A stretch of 43,422 bases of DNA from Flavobacteriales bacterium (GTDB lineage: Bacteria > Bacteroidota > Bacteroidia > Flavobacteriales_D > UBA2798). The stretch covers positions 1 to 43,422 of the forward strand of contig JBKBUQ010000004.1 in NCBI GenBank assembly GCA_046289975.1. Reading direction: 5' to 3'. Made by a program: the position numbers and the translations under genes. The notes under the pieces are model-generated. The model ran no database searches and had not been told where the DNA came from. It saw only the letters and a list, made by a program, of their open reading frames with translations. Positions 7,070 to 16,019 of the stretch are shown in pieces; the stretch's first letter is position 1; every line of letters begins with the position of its first letter.

Positions 7070-8166
7070 TTCACAAGATCTGCTATGACCGAAGCAATAG
7101 CTTCTGCCGAATTCGTAAAACCCAAACCACCGATATTCCGATGCAGAGAATGGCATTTCTCTTCGTTCTCCAACAATTCCAAAACCGTTGTTGCCAGTTG
7201 ATCTTTCGCATCAACATCTTTTACAAGCAATGCCGCATGATGATTAACCAAGGCCATAGCGTTTTTTGTCTGATGGTCTTCTGCAACATTTGGAGATGGA
7301 ACCAGAATTACAGGCTTGCGCACAAGGCATAATTCCGAAATCGCGATTGCCCCTGCACGAGAAATCACCACATCTGCCATTGCATATCCCAAATCCATTC
7401 TGGTAATAAAATCCATCACCTTAATATTTTCTGCCTGTGCATCCTGAACCGCTTTTTGTGCAACAGGAAAATAACTTTTACCGGTTTGCCAAACCACTTG
7501 CACACCTGCTGCTTTAAATCGCTCGATGGAATGATGAACGGCCTCATTTATCGTTCTTGCACCTAAACTTCCACCAACAACCAGAATTGTTTTTATCTCA
7601 GCATTCAATCCAAAAAGTTCAGCAGCTCTTGCCCTTTTCCCTTCCAATTGAACCACATCTTCCCGCACCGGGTTTCCGGTCAATACGATTTTATCTTTTG
7701 GAAACCACTTTTCCAAACCATCATAGGCAACACAAATCCGGCTAACCGATTTAGCAAGCATCTTATTCGTTTTACCGGGGAATGAATTCTGTTCCTGTAT
7801 GACAGTAGGAATTTTCTTTTGCGTTGCAATTTTCAACATCGGACCGCTGGCATATCCACCTACACCAACAACAACATCAGGATTAAATTCCCTCATGATG
7901 CGACGCGCTTTCACCATACTTCGAAATAGATCTCTGAAAAAGGAAAACCATTTAAGCGTAACTTTTCTTGGCATTCCCTGAATTCGTAATCCTGTAATTT
8001 TGTATCCCGCAGCGGGCACCTTTTCCATTTCCATTCTACCTTCAGCACCCACAAAAAGTATTTCCACATCCGGATAGCGCTTTTTCACTGCATTGGCAAT
8101 TGCAATTGCAGGGAAAATATGTCCACCTGTTCCACCACCACTTATTAGTATTTTACGCAACGGCAT
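7066..8166 (-). CDS. murG: Lipid II GlcNAc transferase MurG
   Basis: SGGGTGGHIFPA, GGYAS, QEQN, TGNPVR, GGSLGA, SRAGA, HQTKNA. Start re-called at 8166. Confidence 0.98.
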   Translation of the reverse strand: MPLRKILISGGGTGGHIFPAIAIANAVKKRYPDVEILFVGAEGRMEMEKVPAAGYKITGLRIQGMPRKVTLKWFSFFRDLFRSMVKARRIMREFNPDVVVGVGGYASGPMLKIATQKKIPTVIQEQNSFPGKTNKMLAKSVSRICVAYDGLEKWFPKDKIVLTGNPVREDVVQLEGKRARAAELFGLNAEIKTILVVGGSLGARTINEAVHHSIERFKAAGVQVVWQTGKSYFPVAQKAVQDAQAENIKVMDFITRMDLGYAMADVVISRAGAIAISELCLVRKPVILVPSPNVAEDHQTKNAMALVNHHAALLVKDVDAKDQLATTVLELLENEEKCHSLHRNIGGLGFTNSAEAIASVIADLVK

Positions 8167-9343
8167 AAGAACCTCCTTTCTCCTCATTCAAATCAGTTCT
8201 AACAGTATTTCCTTCCTGTTTTACTTCCTCTTCAACAGATCGGCTTACACTTAATATTATTCCAAGTGAAATAAACGTAAACCAGGTTGAAGTACCTCCC
8301 ATTGATATCAAAGGCATATTTTGACCTGTAACGGGAATTATTTTCGTGCATACCGCCATATTGATAAATGCCATGAAAACAAGATTCAGACATAAACCAA
8401 TCACCATCAATGAACCAAAAACACTTTGGCATTTTGAAGCAATCCGAATTCCTCTGAACAAAAGCATCATGTACATCAGCAATAATACTCCACCTCCCAT
8501 CGATCCGAATTCTTCAATAAAAGATGCGTAAACAAAATCTGCATAAGCCTCAGGAATGATGTGTTTCATCTGACCATTACCCGGACCTTTTCCAAGTAAG
8601 CCACCATTATCAATTGCCATCATCGCATTATTGATCTGCCATTGTTTACGCGGATCTTCTGAAGAGTGGCTGGTAAATCGATTCATCCACGTCTCCAATC
8701 GGGGAAGCAAATCAGGGTTTGCTTTAGCCAGCAAGATCATCAGTCCAAAGGCAGCAATTGCACCACCAACAATTCCAAAAATGTATTTAAACGGAACTTT
8801 AGCTATAAAAAACAAAATGAGTGTCAGTCCAAAAATGAGAACTGCGGTAGAAAGATTCTGTGTAACAATTAAGCCAATAACCAATCCAACCGGAATTAAA
8901 ATCGGCACAATTCCCTCTCTGAAGTCGTGAAACTTATCTCTGTTAATTGTGAGCATTCGCGCCACGAAAACAATCAGCACTACTTTTGCAAAGTCGGATG
9001 TTTGGAATTTGATATTCAGCACAGGAATTTCCAGCCAACGCTCAGCAGCATTGATCCGAACACCTGCAACCAGGGTAACAAAAAGTAAAATCACACTTAC
9101 CCAAATCAGGATCTGAGAGATGCGCGAATAGTATTTAAAGTTGATGTTGTGCACATAAAACATAATGACAAATCCGGAGAATACCATCATCACATGCTTC
9201 AACAGGAAGCCCTCAGTTCCTGAATCACCACGCGCAAGGATGGGGGTAAAGGAATACACCGAGACTAACGAAAACAACGAGAGTATCAGGGTAATCATCC
9301 AGATCACCTTATCACCTTTGAGGTATGTAAAAAACGTACGCAC
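8153..9343 (-). CDS. ftsW: SEDS peptidoglycan polymerase FtsW
   Basis: Multiple TM helices; AERWL, FQTSDFAK, PEAYADFVY, PVTGQNMPLISMGG. GTG start. Confidence 0.97.
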   Translation of the reverse strand: MRTFFTYLKGDKVIWMITLILSLFSLVSVYSFTPILARGDSGTEGFLLKHVMMVFSGFVIMFYVHNINFKYYSRISQILIWVSVILLFVTLVAGVRINAAERWLEIPVLNIKFQTSDFAKVVLIVFVARMLTINRDKFHDFREGIVPILIPVGLVIGLIVTQNLSTAVLIFGLTLILFFIAKVPFKYIFGIVGGAIAAFGLMILLAKANPDLLPRLETWMNRFTSHSSEDPRKQWQINNAMMAIDNGGLLGKGPGNGQMKHIIPEAYADFVYASFIEEFGSMGGGVLLLMYMMLLFRGIRIASKCQSVFGSLMVIGLCLNLVFMAFINMAVCTKIIPVTGQNMPLISMGGTSTWFTFISLGIILSVSRSVEEEVKQEGNTVRTDLNEEKGGSYAVA

Positions 9344-9841
9344 TTATTTAAAAATACCTCCTACAAAAGCTTTGAATGAATCGCCACGGTGACGGTAATC
9401 ATCAAAAAGTGAAAAACTGGTACACCCCGGGGAAAACACCACTACCCCTCCGGTTTTTGTGAGTGATTTTGATTGTGAAACGGCATCCTGAAGATCATTT
9501 GCCCTTATAAAATGATCGACATTCTGGCCAATTGAATTCCTGATCAACTCTTCGCTGCCTGTACCAAACACCACAAGTGAAACAACTTTGTATTTCACTA
9601 CATCGTACAGACAAGAATAATCCTCATGTGTATCGGAGATCTGCATGATCAGCGTAACAGGTTTTTCAATTTGCATTAATGTTTCTTCCACCGCACGTGG
9701 GTCTGTTGCTTTGGAATCGCTGATGTATTCTACACCATCAATAATTGCAACAGACTCGTTACGGTGTTCAATTAACGAAACACCTTTAGAGCGGACATCC
9801 AGCCAGCTCCCTGTTCGGGTTTGTGTTGAACGTTTTTCCAT
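9344..9841 (-). CDS. Stand-alone Mur ligase C-terminal (MurD domain 3, D-Glu-binding-like) protein
   Basis: 165 aa, colinear with the last ~140 aa of the adjacent MurD: EHR, DSKAT, KP, DYS, SPGCTSF-LF--Y--RG--FK. No ATPase or UDP-binding domains. Fills the murD-ftsW gap (10 nt after the murD stop; abuts the ftsW start). Confidence 0.88.
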   Translation of the reverse strand: MEKRSTQTRTGSWLDVRSKGVSLIEHRNESVAIIDGVEYISDSKATDPRAVEETLMQIEKPVTLIMQISDTHEDYSCLYDVVKYKVVSLVVFGTGSEELIRNSIGQNVDHFIRANDLQDAVSQSKSLTKTGGVVVFSPGCTSFSLFDDYRHRGDSFKAFVGGIFK

Positions 9842-9851
9842 AACGGAAGTA

Positions 9852-11195
9852 TTAAAGTGCCTTTACAGCTTGTTTAAATTTTTGTCCTCGCTCTTCGTAA
9901 TTCTCGAAAAGATCAAACGATGCGCAACTTGGTGAAAGAAGTACAACCTGATCTTTTTTCGCAAGACGATAAGAAAGCGCTACAGCTTCATCGGCAGATT
10001 TCGCTTCGACAATGGTTTGAACCTTACCGGAAAAATGCGAAACGATCTTGCTGTTATCCGTTCCCAGACAAACAATCGCCTGTACTTTTTGCTGCACGAG
10101 TTCATCAAGCATCGAATAATCGTTGCCTTTATCAACTCCACCTACGATCCATACGATAGGTTTATTGATAGATTCGAGCGCATACCAGGTACTGTTTACG
10201 TTGGTTGCTTTGGAGTCGTTTATGAATTCGATTCCATGCACCCGCGTAACAAACTCGAGGCGATGTTCTACATTCTGGAAATCCATCAGACATTCGCGGA
10301 TGGTTTCCTTGCGGATCTCGAGCAACCTCGCGGCAATACCGGAGGCCATCGAGTTGTAAGTGTTGTGCTTACCTTGAAGGGCCAGATCAAAAATTGACAT
10401 AGTTTGTGTGGTGTTGTTTGTGGTTATATTGATGGTGTTTGTTTCATAATCTGCATATGCGCCTTCTTCAATTTTCTTTGAATTGCTAAAGGGATACATA
10501 CGGGCATTCACTGTTCTAACTGATAATCCTTCATTGGTAATTGGATCATCAGCGCAATAGATGAATGCATCTTCTTTGGTTTGATTTTGAAGAATTCTGA
10601 ATTTTGAATTCACATAATTCTCCAGTTTGTATTCGTACCGATCGAGATGATCAGGTGTAATATTGGTAAGAATGGCAATGTTTGCTCTGAATGAATACAT
10701 GTTATCAAGTTGAAAACTGCTCAACTCCAAAACATAATGATCATGATCATTTTCAGCAACCTGCAAAGCAAAACTTTGTCCAACATTTCCTGCCAATCCA
10801 ACATTTAATCCGGCGCGTTTTAAAATATGGTAGGTCAAAAGCGTAGTTGTTGTTTTTCCATTTGATCCCGTTATACAAATCATTTTTGCGTTTGTATAGC
10901 GACTGGCAAATTCAATTTCCGACAACACAGGAATATCTTTTTCTTTCAACTTCTGAACGATGGGTGCCTTATCAGGTATACCCGGACTTTTTATCACTTC
11001 ATCAGCGTTCAGAATCAATTCTTCGGTATGCGTATTCTCTTCCCACTTCACATGATGTGCATCCATCAGTGTTTTGTAGCGGGATTTTATTGTACCCTTA
11101 TCCGAAACAAAGACATCATAGCCCTGCTTTAAACCAAGAATTGCAGATCCTGCTCCGCTTTCACCGGCACCTAATATGACGAGTCTCTTCTTCAA
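9852..11195 (-). CDS. murD: UDP-N-acetylmuramoyl-L-alanine--D-glutamate ligase
   Basis: [56 protein letters not shown] start overlaps the mraY TGA. Confidence 0.98.
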
Positions 11196-12433: not shown

Positions 12434-13896
12434 CAGCTTCCAATGAGTTTAAAACAGTTTTGTACTTCTTCGAGATCATCGAAATGTTGTCGTTCTCCTT
12501 TGATCTCCTGGTATTTTTCATGACCCTTTCCGGCAATAAGTAAAATATCCCCCGGCTGTGCCATCATACATGCTGCACGAATTGCTTCACGACGGTTGGT
12601 AATGGACATCACTTTTCGGGTTTGATCCGATTCCACACCATTCATCATATCCATGATAATTGCTTCCGGTTCTTCACTGCGGGGATTATCGGATGTAATA
12701 ATTACTTTATCACTCAGCTCGCAGGCAATTCCCGCCATTAACGGACGCTTTCCCTTATCACGATCGCCACCACAACCTACAACCGTAATCACCATTTCGT
12801 TTCCGGTACGTATATCGCGAATGGTATTCAATACATTCTTCAAAGCATCTGGTGTATGCGCATAATCCACAATGGCCGTTATGTCGTTGCTCGATTTCAC
12901 ATATTGAAATCTTCCTTCGGGTGCATTGAGTGTACTTATCTGGGTTAAAACGGTTAAATCATCCTGACCCAACAATCGCGCAACAGTATAAACAGCAAGA
13001 ATGTTATAGGCATTAAAACTTCCAATCAGTTTTGTCCAGAGATCTTTTCCATCGATGTTCAGCTGCAATCCACTAAACTGATTTTCCACAACCTTTGCGC
13101 GAAAATCGGCCATACTTTTTACAGCATATGTTCTTACCCTTGCTTTGGTGTCTTTCACCATTTCTTCTCCGTGGTAATCGTCTTTATTTACCAAGGCAAA
13201 AGCATCAGCGCTCAGCATATCAAAAAAGCCCTTTTTCGCTTTTAGGTATTCATCAAAAGTTCCATGATAATCGAGATGATCATGAGTTATATTGGTAAAT
13301 ACAGCTCCGGCAAAACGAACACCGCCAATTCGTTTCTGATGAACGGCATGTGAACTCACTTCCATAAAGCAATACGTACAACCTGCATCCACCATATCAC
13401 GCAACAAAGCATTTAACTCAATTGCATTGGGTGTGGTATGGGTTGCTGTAACCGTTTCATTATGGATGCGATTTACTACAGTAGAAAGTAAACCGGTTTT
13501 AAAACCCATTCGCTTAAACAAACTGTACAAAAGCGTAACAGTTGTCGTTTTTCCGTTAGTACCGGTAACACCAATCAGTTTCAGTTTTTCCGAAGGATGG
13601 TCGTAGAATTCCGCAGCCATTACCCCAAGAGAAGCAGCAGCGTCGTTCACGCGAACATAAGTTACATGCGGGTGACGCTCAGACGGAGTCTGTTCGCAGA
13701 TAATGCAATCTGCTCCCAGCTCAATTGCCTTATTTATGAAATCATGTCCATCCGATTGCAAACCTTTAATGGCTACAAACATCCAATTGGGTCGAACCTT
13801 TCTTGAGTCGAGCGTAATTCCCTCTACAGCAATATTGGTTGAGCCCTCTACCTCAAGGATGCGCACACTGTATAATATGTCGCGTAATAACTTCAT
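12433..13896 (-). CDS. murE: UDP-MurNAc-tripeptide synthetase (meso-DAP type)
   Basis: [34 protein letters not shown] (meso-DAP specificity motif), AGKGHE. Confidence 0.98.
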
Positions 13897-16019
13897 TACA
13901 TCAACTCAATCTCAATTGTTTCACCTTGTTGAATTGCCTTTCCTTCGGGAAGTGACTGGCGTTTTACTTTTCCACTTCCTTTTACTTTTACCACCAGACC
14001 TCTGTTTTCCAATAGGAAAAGCGCATCTTTTAATCCCATTCCAATTACGGTTGGAACTTTATTTTCCGCAATTTCTTTTTTCTGCAATACAATTCGCTTT
14101 TCACCATCAGCGATGGGACGCACCCATTCTGCACCTTCATCCCCGGTTGAAGAAGCAATTTTCAGTGTCTTGAATATTTCGGTCAGGTCTTTTTGATGGG
14201 CAGCCTTACTTACAGGTAATTCGTTTGAGGCCATAAGAGATTCACGCTCCCTCTCACTTACTTCGAGTGAACGTGCATACATTTTATCTGCAATTTCCTT
14301 AAACACATTTCCAGCTACTGCATTACCGTAGTAGCCTGTCAGTACATTGGGTTCCATTACCCACACAATACAACTATACCGTGGTGCATCAGCAGGAAAA
14401 TACCCAACAAATGATGCGAGGTATTTTTCTTTGTTGTATGCTCCCTTACTATGTATCTGAGCAGTTCCTGTTTTTCCTGCAATAGAAAAATTTGCTGCTT
14501 TTAAATTCATTGCTGTACCGGTATCAACCACACCTTCCAGCATAGGTCGAATCATATTCAGTGTTTTCTCACTGCAGATTTTTTCCTTCATTACGATAGG
14601 CTTGTACTTCTTCACAATTTTTCCGTTGCGACGGATATCCTGTACAAACTGCGGCTTAACCATCATTCCGTTATTGGCAATGGCATTATAAAAAGTGAGA
14701 ATTTGAATGGGAGCAAGTTTAGATTCATATCCAATAGCCATCATTGGCAAGGTTACACCCGACCATTCATTTCTATTGGAAGGATCTTTTAAATAAGGTT
14801 TTGCCTCACCTGCGATATCAAGACCAAGCAGTTCTCCAATCCCCAACTTCTTTAGCCCTTCAATAAACCGTTTCGGATCGCGACCGTATGCTTCCACGAT
14901 AGGCTTGGAACAACCGATATTGGAGGAGACCTCAAGCGCATGTTTAATTGTAATTGTCCCATGCGGTTTGGTGTCCTTCATTTTAATATTGTAGTAACTG
15001 TATTCTCCCTTGCCTGTTTTAACGGAATCGAAAGGCTTGAACATTCCGTCCTCGAAACCGACCATGAGCGAAGCGGTTTTAAACGTTGAACCGGGCTCAA
15101 TTGCTGTTCCGATGGCATGATTGAAATGTTCGTAATACTGGCCGTCTTCACCAATGGAAAGATTTGCCATGGCTTTAACCATTCCGGTTTCTACTTCCAT
15201 CAATACAACACAACCACTTTTGGCCTCGTATTTTTGAAGCTGACTTAATAGCGCATTTTCAGCAACGTCCTGAATGTTGATATCTATACTTGTAAAAACA
15301 TCTGCACCGTCGACCGGATTTACTTCGTAATTATCAGAAACCGGACGCCATTGCAACCCTACTTTTTTCATGAGTTGCTTTCCGTCTGTTCCGCTTAACT
15401 CTTTCGAAAACGCTCCTTCCAATCCGATGCGGGAAATGAATTGCGGATTATCGGGATCGGGACGCTCGTAACCAATGAGTCGTGCGGCGAGTAAACCGTA
15501 GGGACGACTTCTCTTGTTTTCTTTTACTACAATTAATCCACCTTTGTTTTTTCCCAATTTGAAAATGGGAAATTTTTTCATCGCCTGCAGTTCGGGATGC
15601 TTAACCTTTGCTCTGACCAGGTAATAACGGTTTCCGTTCTTTCTTGCTTCGATAAGATCCTGGTAAAAACGCGCTTTGGGTTTATCCGAAAACAAACGGG
15701 AAAGTTTGTAAGCCAGCGAATCCACATTATCGAAGAAGATTTCATCTGTTAAGCCATCAGCTCCCATATCCATGCGCACTTCATAAACCGGGATTGAAGT
15801 GGCAAGCAGACTTCCGTTGTCGGAATAAATATTTCCGCGTACTGCTTCAATGGTTCGCAAATCGGTAAGCAATTCCTCAGGCTGACCAATTACAGAAACG
15901 GTATCCATTTGAATGCGGAAAACCTTTACCACAACAACCAGCGCAAAAACGCAAAGCACAAGATAAACCAGGTACATCCTCCGCATCATGTCTTTTCTAT
16001 CGTCGCTTTTTTCTTTCAC
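13896..16019 (-). CDS. ftsI: Class B PBP (FtsI/PBP3) with C-terminal PASTA domain
   Basis: RGNIYS, GLEG, EPGSTFK (SxxK), SSN (SxN), KTGTAQ; C-terminal VPTVIGM..KDA...LE..GL PASTA domain. Confidence 0.96.
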   Translation of the reverse strand: MKEKSDDRKDMMRRMYLVYLVLCVFALVVVVKVFRIQMDTVSVIGQPEELLTDLRTIEAVRGNIYSDNGSLLATSIPVYEVRMDMGADGLTDEIFFDNVDSLAYKLSRLFSDKPKARFYQDLIEARKNGNRYYLVRAKVKHPELQAMKKFPIFKLGKNKGGLIVVKENKRSRPYGLLAARLIGYERPDPDNPQFISRIGLEGAFSKELSGTDGKQLMKKVGLQWRPVSDNYEVNPVDGADVFTSIDINIQDVAENALLSQLQKYEAKSGCVVLMEVETGMVKAMANLSIGEDGQYYEHFNHAIGTAIEPGSTFKTASLMVGFEDGMFKPFDSVKTGKGEYSYYNIKMKDTKPHGTITIKHALEVSSNIGCSKPIVEAYGRDPKRFIEGLKKLGIGELLGLDIAGEAKPYLKDPSNRNEWSGVTLPMMAIGYESKLAPIQILTFYNAIANNGMMVKPQFVQDIRRNGKIVKKYKPIVMKEKICSEKTLNMIRPMLEGVVDTGTAMNLKAANFSIAGKTGTAQIHSKGAYNKEKYLASFVGYFPADAPRYSCIVWVMEPNVLTGYYGNAVAGNVFKEIADKMYARSLEVSERERESLMASNELPVSKAAHQKDLTEIFKTLKIASSTGDEGAEWVRPIADGEKRIVLQKKEIAENKVPTVIGMGLKDALFLLENRGLVVKVKGSGKVKRQSLPEGKAIQQGETIEIELM

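Follow-up and report, generated by a model that had tools for sequence, protein, structure and literature searches.

Few gene orders in bacteria are as conserved as that of the dcw cluster, so that a further gene, kept by selection between murD and ftsW, would not be expected there. Just such an additional open reading frame is found in the window—a term covering here the whole analysed stretch of 43,422 nucleotides from a Flavobacteriales bacterium—and it raises the question of what the encoded protein is and which role it could have between its two neighbours. The frame, a stand-alone paralogue of the third domain of MurD, is referred to below as SA. The genes on the reverse strand of the window are ordered ftsI (13896-16019), murE, mraY, murD, SA, ftsW, murG, murC and ftsQ, the three of immediate concern being:

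9852..11195, reverse strand: murD, TIGR01087 400.8 bits against a cut-off of 212, with GGVDKG and NDSKATN intact
9344..9841, reverse strand: SA, stand-alone MurD domain-3 paralogue, 165 aa, ATG start, stop codon included
8153..9343, reverse strand: ftsW (SEDS glycosyltransferase), Pfam FTSW_RODA_SPOVE 233 bits, GTG start abutting the SA stop

The murD stop codon (9852-9854) is followed by 10 nt (TACTTCCGTT) and then by the ATG of SA at 9841, and the TAA stop of SA (9344-9346) directly adjoins the GTG of ftsW (9341-9343), the gap being 0 nt; the tight packing reported in an earlier note on this DNA was confirmed base by base. The reading frame of SA differs from that of murD. Its GC content of 0.418 is similar to that of the neighbouring genes and there is, therefore, no sign of a recent import. 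Contigs from four DNA runs, originating from four studies, cover the region with 103-115 substitutions and leave SA free of indels.

Concerning the relatedness of SA to MurD, the earlier note had spoken of an intact 165-aa frame about one-third identical to the MurD C-terminal domain, and this estimate held, BLASTP aligning residues 24-163 of SA with residues 309-447 of the neighbouring MurD at 52/140 identities (37%, E 3e-27). The Pfam family Mur_ligase_C (PF02875) was matched by residues 26-138 with 29.7 bits, thus passing the gathering threshold of 28.4, the same match reaching 28.5 bits in the scan of the whole genome. The MurD equivalog model TIGR01087 gave 112.1 bits, which is below its cut-off of 211.95, and covered only model positions 304-439 of 441; it was the sole match in the NCBIfam scan of SA at E<=1. 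Since Pfam families Mur_ligase_M, MurD_N and MurD-like_N found no match in SA, both the UDP-binding domain and the P-loop ATPase domain are absent.

The AlphaFold model of SA, built on the alignment of 31 family members, has a pLDDT of 87.8 and a pTM of 0.81. Its 33 top matches in the PDB, as revealed by Foldseek, are all MurD (query TM 0.71-0.78, rmsd 1.5-2.5 A), followed further down by MurE, Mpl, FolC and MurF. The family profile, when compared with solved structures, recognised best the Thermotoga MurD (4BUC, E 1e-30), its only matches other than MurD being two spurious designer PPR chains (E ~1e-6). SA thus has in common with MurD (PDB 4BUC, 7U35, 3LK7, 2UAG) the fold as well as the HR, NDSKAT, SPxCxS and RG motifs; it differs from it by the lack of domains 1 and 2, hence of the UDP-MurNAc site and the P-loop, by the loss of the GGxDKG loop with Lys348, by its score under the family cut-off, and by the replacements of Asn322 by Asp, Leu409 by Phe and Ala329 by Ser.

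The N-terminal part deserves a separate remark, since it had been described as some 23 new residues. The feature concerned is:

9782..9841, reverse strand: N-terminal 20 residues of SA (MEKRSTQTRTGSWLDVRSKG), basic, predicted disordered, pLDDT < 50

In the family alignment, however, the N-terminal ~23 residues align with the MurD helix located just before domain 3, and an arginine column of that helix (E. coli R286) is occupied by Arg in 84% of the SA copies and 92% of the MurD proteins. The segment is therefore not wholly new but corresponds to the pre-domain-3 helix of MurD, of which it is, judging from the alignment, a remnant, and the breakpoint of the duplication accordingly falls inside the end of domain 2. 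Sequence and predicted fold thus show SA to be a free-standing paralogue of MurD domain 3, with the linker helix in front of it and no catalytic capacity.

The motifs listed in the earlier note, including the two replacements QISDTH and DSKATD, are all present. With the E. coli numbering of the literature, transferred by alignment with the E. coli MurD, they are as follows:

9755..9769, reverse strand: EHRNE, equivalents of E. coli His301, Arg302 and Glu304
9701..9721, reverse strand: SDSKATD, equivalent of the NDSKATN loop (Asp317, Lys319, Thr321), with Asn322 changed to Asp
9626..9643, reverse strand: QISDTH, in place of the MurD GGxDKG loop (GGVDKG in the neighbour) that bears Lys348
9413..9436, reverse strand: FSPGCTSF, equivalent of LSPACASL (Ser410-Pro411 to Ser415-Leu416), with Leu409 changed to Phe
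9383..9397, reverse strand: YRHRG, equivalents of Phe422, Arg425 and Gly426

These positions were counted in 31 SA copies and compared with 38 MurD proteins of Flavobacteriales. Asp317 and the pair Ser410-Pro411 are invariant in SA (31/31 each), followed by Gly426 (29/31), Asn316 and an aromatic residue at Phe422 (28/31 each, the latter ~90%), Ser318 and Arg302 (27/31 each, i.e. 87% for Arg302), Glu304 and Arg425 (26/31 each), Thr321 (24/31, 77%) and Lys319 (22/31, 71%, with Arg in a further 4/31, 13%); His301 is kept in 20/31 and Ser415 in only 18/31 (58%). Gly345 and Lys348 are found in none of the 31 SA copies vs 38/38 MurD proteins, the position of Lys348 being occupied by F, H, V, L and others, and the positions after it being variable. 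Three changes are specific to the family, i.e. Leu409 to Phe (28/31), Ala329 to Ser (27/31) and Asn322 to Asp (22/31). In MurD, Lys348, Ala414 and Leu416 lie near D-Glu and Lys319 near ADP (PMC8788868, section 5). The loops that face the ATP/D-Glu pocket of MurD are thus, by these counts, retained in SA as Arg302, Asn316-Asp317-Ser318-Lys319, Ser410-Pro411 and Arg425-Gly426.

Without domains 1 and 2, and with the Lys348 loop missing from 31/31 copies, SA cannot be a ligase; the earlier view of a catalytically dead protein is borne out in this respect. That note had also considered SA as a domain 3 acting in trans, either with specificity for a new amino acid or in the service of a ligase lacking a domain 3 of its own. 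The residues on the α-carboxylate side are indeed kept, and both the Pro at the Ala414 position (10/31 copies) and the Phe at Leu416 resemble residues of MurD2 (PMC8788868, section 5). The loop replacing GGxDKG is, however, variable and contains no newly conserved residue, i.e. it has not been re-specified, and all the checkable proteins of the Mur-ligase type in the genome have their own C domain; moreover, MurI is present and the Asp182/Lys348 positions of MurD are canonical. A trans-acting domain 3 is therefore not supported and is considered very improbable.

The genome-wide inventory on which this relies contains eight Mur_ligase_M and eight Mur_ligase_C matches. Both domains are borne by the frames of MurE, MurD, MurC and a MurC/Mpl-like ligase, the last one (478 aa, G000:C334, L178:904-2340) scoring below both family cut-offs. 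MurF (TIGR01143) and an 822-aa MurF-Alr protein (NF008897, 1077 bits; no Pfam C match) matched the full MurF model of NCBIfam; the latter, a MurF-alanine racemase encoded at G000:C109:12396-14864 (L177:896-3364), occurs besides the separate MurF. One further frame with M and C matches (C154:14409-15452), named by none of the scans, is probably FolC, and the M-domain match that breaks off where contig C285 ends is presumed to go on in the C-domain match with which C217 begins. Based on these M, C and full-model matches, none of the checkable ligases is devoid of domain 3, and the idea of an orphan ligase in need of one was rejected.

The same fate met the MurD2/MurL pathway of Xanthomonas, in which MurL has no known conserved domains and is found where MurI is missing (PMC8788868), and MurD2 has Glu/Arg at the positions of Asp182/Lys348 (PMC8788868, sections 4 and 5). 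The likeness consists in an extra gene adjoining a murD-type gene and in the Glu step, whereas the genome of the window differs by the presence of MurI, by its canonical MurD and by SA being a Mur_ligase_C domain (compared with PMC8788868). The glutamate racemase MurI was identified on contig C132 (TIGR00067, 206 bits, above cut-off), and the MurD of the window has both PDH (Asp182) and GGVDKG (Lys348) in canonical form, so that an L-Glu route is not needed.

The conserved NDSKAT and SPxCxS loops, along with the equivalents of Thr321 and of the aromatic Phe422, might also fit a free small-ligand binder, one that would sense or buffer an adenine nucleotide, D-Glu or a UDP-MurNAc-peptide and signal to an effector. 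In MurD, however, it is chiefly the domain-2 P-loop that holds ATP, and UDP-MurNAc is bound by domains 1 and 2; SA has neither domain, and its Lys348 loop is lost and variable in sequence; such a binder is thus rated as quite unlikely. No output domain or fusion of the SA type was found among the 150 best representatives. Fusions were, in general, tried as clues to function and set aside: in two of those 150 the C domain lies near the N-terminus—a MurD-FtsW fusion fragment and an odd protein with the canonical Lys loop—neither of them being of the SA type. In the protein P0056 (379 aa), residues 69-182 form a canonical MurD C-domain that has the Lys loop, flanked by ~65 N-terminal and ~175 C-terminal residues that belong to no Pfam family.

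In E. coli MurD, Arg302 and Asp317 contact the nucleotide. It is the nucleotide side that is best kept in SA (Arg302 87%, Asp317 100%, Lys319 71% plus 13% Arg), the D-Glu side having lost Lys348 in 31/31 copies and keeping Ser415 in only 58%. This pattern, and the descent of SA from MurD, would suit a protein that is purely a modulator of MurD, competing with MurD's own domain 3 for the central domain in its ATP-loaded state and thereby restraining the addition of D-Glu, its coupling to ftsW being just operon packing. Against it, a free domain would have to prevail over a tethered one, none of the MurD positions co-varies with the presence of SA, SA goes with ftsW and not with murD where the two are separated (see below), and SA derivatives without the motifs persist; on balance this explanation seems unlikely, even if it deserves more credit than the ligand binder.

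Concerning the distribution of the family, the murD-ftsW region was inspected in the 40 closest relatives and in the window's own genome, i.e. in 41 genomes. A MurD-C-like frame of 146-176 aa occupies the place between murD and ftsW in 27 of them (including that of the window; one frame is cut by a contig end), six of the 41 containing full tandem pairs, and the frames of these 27 are free of internal stops; the search for short Mur_ligase_C-only frames next to murD, proposed previously, has thus yielded orthologues at the same spot. A recognisable SA is missing in the remaining 14.

A wider sample comprised 301 Flavobacteriales genomes of at least 90% completeness, in which two or more SA-profile matches at E<=1e-8 were counted, not individually inspected. 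It should be noted that in this count, according to which about 74 of the 301 genomes are apparent carriers, a second match can also be simulated by a MurD divided between two contigs. By family, these uninspected profile counts are:

f1 8/9, f2 3/3, f3 26/27, f4 6/6, f5 2/2
f6 1/2, f9 1/1, f13 20/20 (all with two extra copies), f14 4/4, f15 1/1
f10 2/102, f11 0/102, f7 0/13, f8 0/3, f12 0/6

SA is thus present in roughly one quarter of the sampled Flavobacteriales, nearly all of them outside the two largest families (f10 and f11), from which it is almost absent. No genome carrying SA and lacking MurD was seen among the 301. As for MurD itself, G575 and G579 of this sample have neither a MurD nor an SA-profile match and G167 of the class sample has no MurD match, the completeness of the three being 90-100% and assembly gaps being a conceivable reason; G541 and G549 show weak MurD matches and no SA-profile match. 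In one genus of f11, MurD is a longer single frame (487-548 aa, e.g. G527:C2:510090-511511 and G436:C9:83659-85074) with extra sequence between the parts matching residues 5-222 and 244-447, at weak E-values. Outside the order, no SA was detected in the phylum-wide sample of 296 other Bacteroidota genomes, the sole second match there (G069) being a MurD broken across two contigs.

A search of named public genomes, done with a 6-row alignment, returned 80 loci. A small SA-type frame is present in 20 of these, all metagenome-assembled genomes (MAGs), with labels Parvicellaceae, Crocinitomicaceae, Cryomorphaceae and Flavobacteriales; one each is labelled 'uncultured Weeksellaceae' and 'Chryseobacterium gleum', both labels being doubtful. 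The other 60 represent full MurD, including those from cultured Wenyingzhuangia, Polaribacter, Bergeyella and Roseivirga, so that the cultured organisms among the 80 loci have MurD only. The closest named relative of the window, obtained by a search with the single SA protein, is the MAG 'Flavobacteriales bacterium UBA2798', at 98% identity. In the ESM Atlas, 27 of the 30 nearest clusters are Bacteroidota Mur_ligase_C proteins of 160-177 aa, and the best 150 of 1.84 billion representatives include 22 with <=200 aa and no GGxDKG-like loop. The source databases, where they name SA proteins at all, label them MurD, i.e. automatic annotation names SA as the ligase itself. SA belongs to an old family of uncultured Flavobacteriales, and the literature searches brought up no account of a MurD C-domain protein of this stand-alone kind. 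Of the 17 tblastn matches in phages, two carry a murD annotation and the majority come from faecal contigs named 'Bacteriophage sp.' that have no annotation, and on these grounds they are presumed to be ordinary murD; the viral contig set contained no SA match.

The evolutionary tree was calculated from the 31 SA copies, the 38 Flavobacteriales MurD C-domains and nine outgroup MurD sequences (a quick IQ-TREE run under LG+G4 with SH-aLRT and no bootstrap). All 31 SA copies form one clade (SH-aLRT 97) apart from the MurD C-domains, covering at least 11 families and having branches several times longer than those of MurD; the SA of the window groups with those from G001 and G003 (SH-aLRT 99). The downstream copies from genomes with two copies constitute a sub-clade of their own (SH-aLRT 97). 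The single clade together with this sub-clade argues for one old event of partial duplication, after which tandem duplications and losses took place, and not for repeated independent births; accordingly, the tree indicates that SA arose once, when part of murD was duplicated in tandem in an ancestor shared by several Flavobacteriales families, and that some lineages later gained a further copy while in others SA disappeared or degenerated.

Degradation is seen in two forms. In G034, which was counted among the 14 genomes without a recognisable SA, a 157-aa frame lies between murD and ftsW (L038:2540-3013, reverse strand), homologous to SA by hhalign (94.9%, E 4e-8); it has lost the HR, NDSKAT, SP and RG motifs and kept the N-terminal helix 'QLLEARNRNL'. 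In G015 (family f5), a second, strongly degenerate copy of 146 aa (L027:2773-3213, forward strand; hhalign 95.7%) immediately follows the first SA, preserving 'GDIVLFSP' and devoid of the NDSKAT loop; from an equal gap, the same can be inferred for G030 (f5, L026). Since the motif-poor copies of G034 and G015 persist as open frames, the ligand-side loops are not indispensable everywhere. A different irregularity occurs in G387, where murD (L193:4034-5212, reverse strand) is a 392-aa frame covering only query residues 4-388, separated by a 167-nt gap from two SA copies, which may be due to a frameshift or an assembly error.

With regard to selection, SA of the window and that of the closest strain, G002, are distinguished by 17 substitutions, three of them non-synonymous, corresponding to a dN/dS of 0.085 (MurD 0.089, FtsW 0.011). 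Within the genus of the window, where dS is saturated, dN amounts to 0.45-0.52 for SA, 0.13-0.18 for MurD and 0.13-0.22 for FtsW (for the pair G000-G001, 0.45 vs 0.14 and 0.13), i.e. in the window's family the dN of SA is ~3x that of MurD or FtsW; SA is, furthermore, missing in G006 and G009 of that family. In family f1, the dN/dS of SA is 0.45 for G007-G010 and 0.118 for G005-G011, and it is 0.135 for G012-G027. The dN values in family f3 are 0.19 and 0.31 for SA, 0.18 and 0.27 for MurD, and 0.27 and 0.30 for FtsW. The low dN/dS against G002, on the one hand, and the high dN within the genus together with the parity in f3, on the other, point to a selected gene with a lineage-dependent constraint: by these comparisons, SA is under purifying selection, whose strength differs from lineage to lineage and is comparatively low in the family of the window. 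The purifying selection invoked in the earlier note is thus supported by the dN/dS of 0.085 and by the 27/41 genomes with stop-free orthologues, whereas the constraint at this place is weaker than had been assumed.

The weak constraint could also mean that SA in the lineage of the window is a drifting leftover of the old duplication, with little or no function and heading for loss, as may be seen in the ~3x dN within the genus, the dN/dS of 0.45 for G007-G010, the losses in G006 and G009, and the degenerate copies elsewhere. We doubt this strongly, giving it about as little credence as the ligand binder, because the frame is intact in the relatives bearing SA, dN/dS against the closest strain is 0.085, no SA indels were seen in the contigs from four studies, the clade spans at least 11 families, and the constraint in f3 equals that of MurD. 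If SA were nevertheless dispensable, it would be a well-dated case of a partial gene duplicate persisting in an essential operon.

As to the spacing of the genes, the last SA copy is separated from ftsW by <=5 nt or overlaps it in 21/28 loci (median 2), and murD is followed by SA within <=5 nt in 2/28 loci (median 11); in genomes without SA, the gaps between murD and ftsW are 1-227 nt, plus 521 nt in G034 with its degenerate copy. In G427 and G431, belonging to one genus of f3, two genes for membrane proteins are inserted between murD and SA, and SA of G427 is still 5 nt from ftsW (the contig of G431 ends inside SA). The short spacing in most loci and the staying with ftsW upon separation from murD argue that SA is, in terms of gene arrangement, tied to ftsW more than to murD. 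The inserted genes themselves (L190:1636-3690 and L191:1675-3670) encode paralogous, lipoprotein-like, multi-pass proteins of ~300-350 aa without a Pfam family, sharing the motif 'VVHNGFLQKRKYxKGY' after a lipobox-like Cys.

No column of MurD or FtsW convincingly tracks the presence of SA. In MurD the largest difference in frequency is 0.59, and in FtsW a single column separates the genomes with and without SA (difference 0.72), by a conservative exchange of Val and Ala. It is residue 314 of the window's FtsW (about 8402-8404), located in a membrane segment, with Val in 21/26 genomes having SA and Ala in 10/12 without it; the pattern is probably a phylogenetic signal. The prediction of a three-chain complex of SA, FtsW and MurG with alignments scored 0.00, allowing no call either way.

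Taking the MurD-like face that has been kept, the ligase parts that have been lost, and the stop codon abutting ftsW, SA would best be seen as a non-catalytic accessory made together with FtsW. The most likely of the roles considered, although held only tentatively, is that of an accessory, adaptor or modulator between MurD and FtsW. SA would act where the cytoplasmic synthesis of precursors meets the septal polymerase; as a mimic of domain 3, its MurD-like face would dock on a Mur ligase, most likely MurD, at the central domain loaded with nucleotide, and the docking would modulate or localise the D-Glu-adding step without catalysis. SA may also be a sensor, regulator or scaffold, as suggested before. 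In case SA binds MurD, FtsW or both, it would represent a new kind of regulator or adaptor linking cytoplasmic peptidoglycan precursors to the septal polymerase, and a natural case in which a domain taken from an enzyme serves again as a subunit without catalysis. Several observations speak against the adaptor, namely the fast evolution in the window's family (dN 0.45; dN/dS 0.45 for G007-G010) with the absence from G006 and G009, the persistence of degenerate copies without the NDSKAT loop (G034, G015), the fact that no MurD column and just one conservative FtsW column follow SA, the short cytoplasmic N-tail of FtsW of only ~12 residues, and the tight spacing common to dcw operons in general.

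In favour of the adaptor, fused MurD-FtsW proteins are known in other phyla: natural MurD-FtsW chimeras make up 3% of the Mur chimeras and come from Proteobacteria and Actinobacteria (PMC10214165). The same paper reports that Mur ligases bind each other via their central domains with a KD near 0.8 uM. One MurD-FtsW fusion was seen directly as the fragment P0079, with Mur_ligase_C at residues 75-188, then FtsW at 237-518, and the loop GGEDKG. The chimeras are similar to SA in having MurD domain 3 directly before FtsW; unlike SA, which is free, dead and additional to a full MurD, they contain a complete and presumably active MurD with the Lys loop. A chimera in the window itself was rejected, since the TAA stop of SA precedes the ftsW GTG and SA is out of the murD frame. 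A bolder version, which we regard as improbable and somewhat less credible than the modulator acting on MurD alone, would make SA the free counterpart of these fusions: a dead domain 3, co-translated with FtsW and staying at its cytoplasmic face, which would dock ATP-loaded Mur ligases through its preserved MurD-like surface, as a new divisome accessory coupling the precursor supply to septal synthesis in a large group of uncultured Flavobacteriales.

Precedents of two kinds, finally, come from relatives and partners of the Mur ligases. The weaker Foldseek matches of SA include chains of the plastid polymerase entries 8RAS and 8QMA (ranks 43 and 47), which we take to be PAP11. This MurE-like subunit of the plant plastid RNA polymerase provides a precedent for a structural use of the Mur-ligase fold, and the MurD-binding protein MigC from Acinetobacter one for a protein partner tuning MurD; unlike SA, neither of the two is a domain 3 on its own encoded in a dcw cluster.
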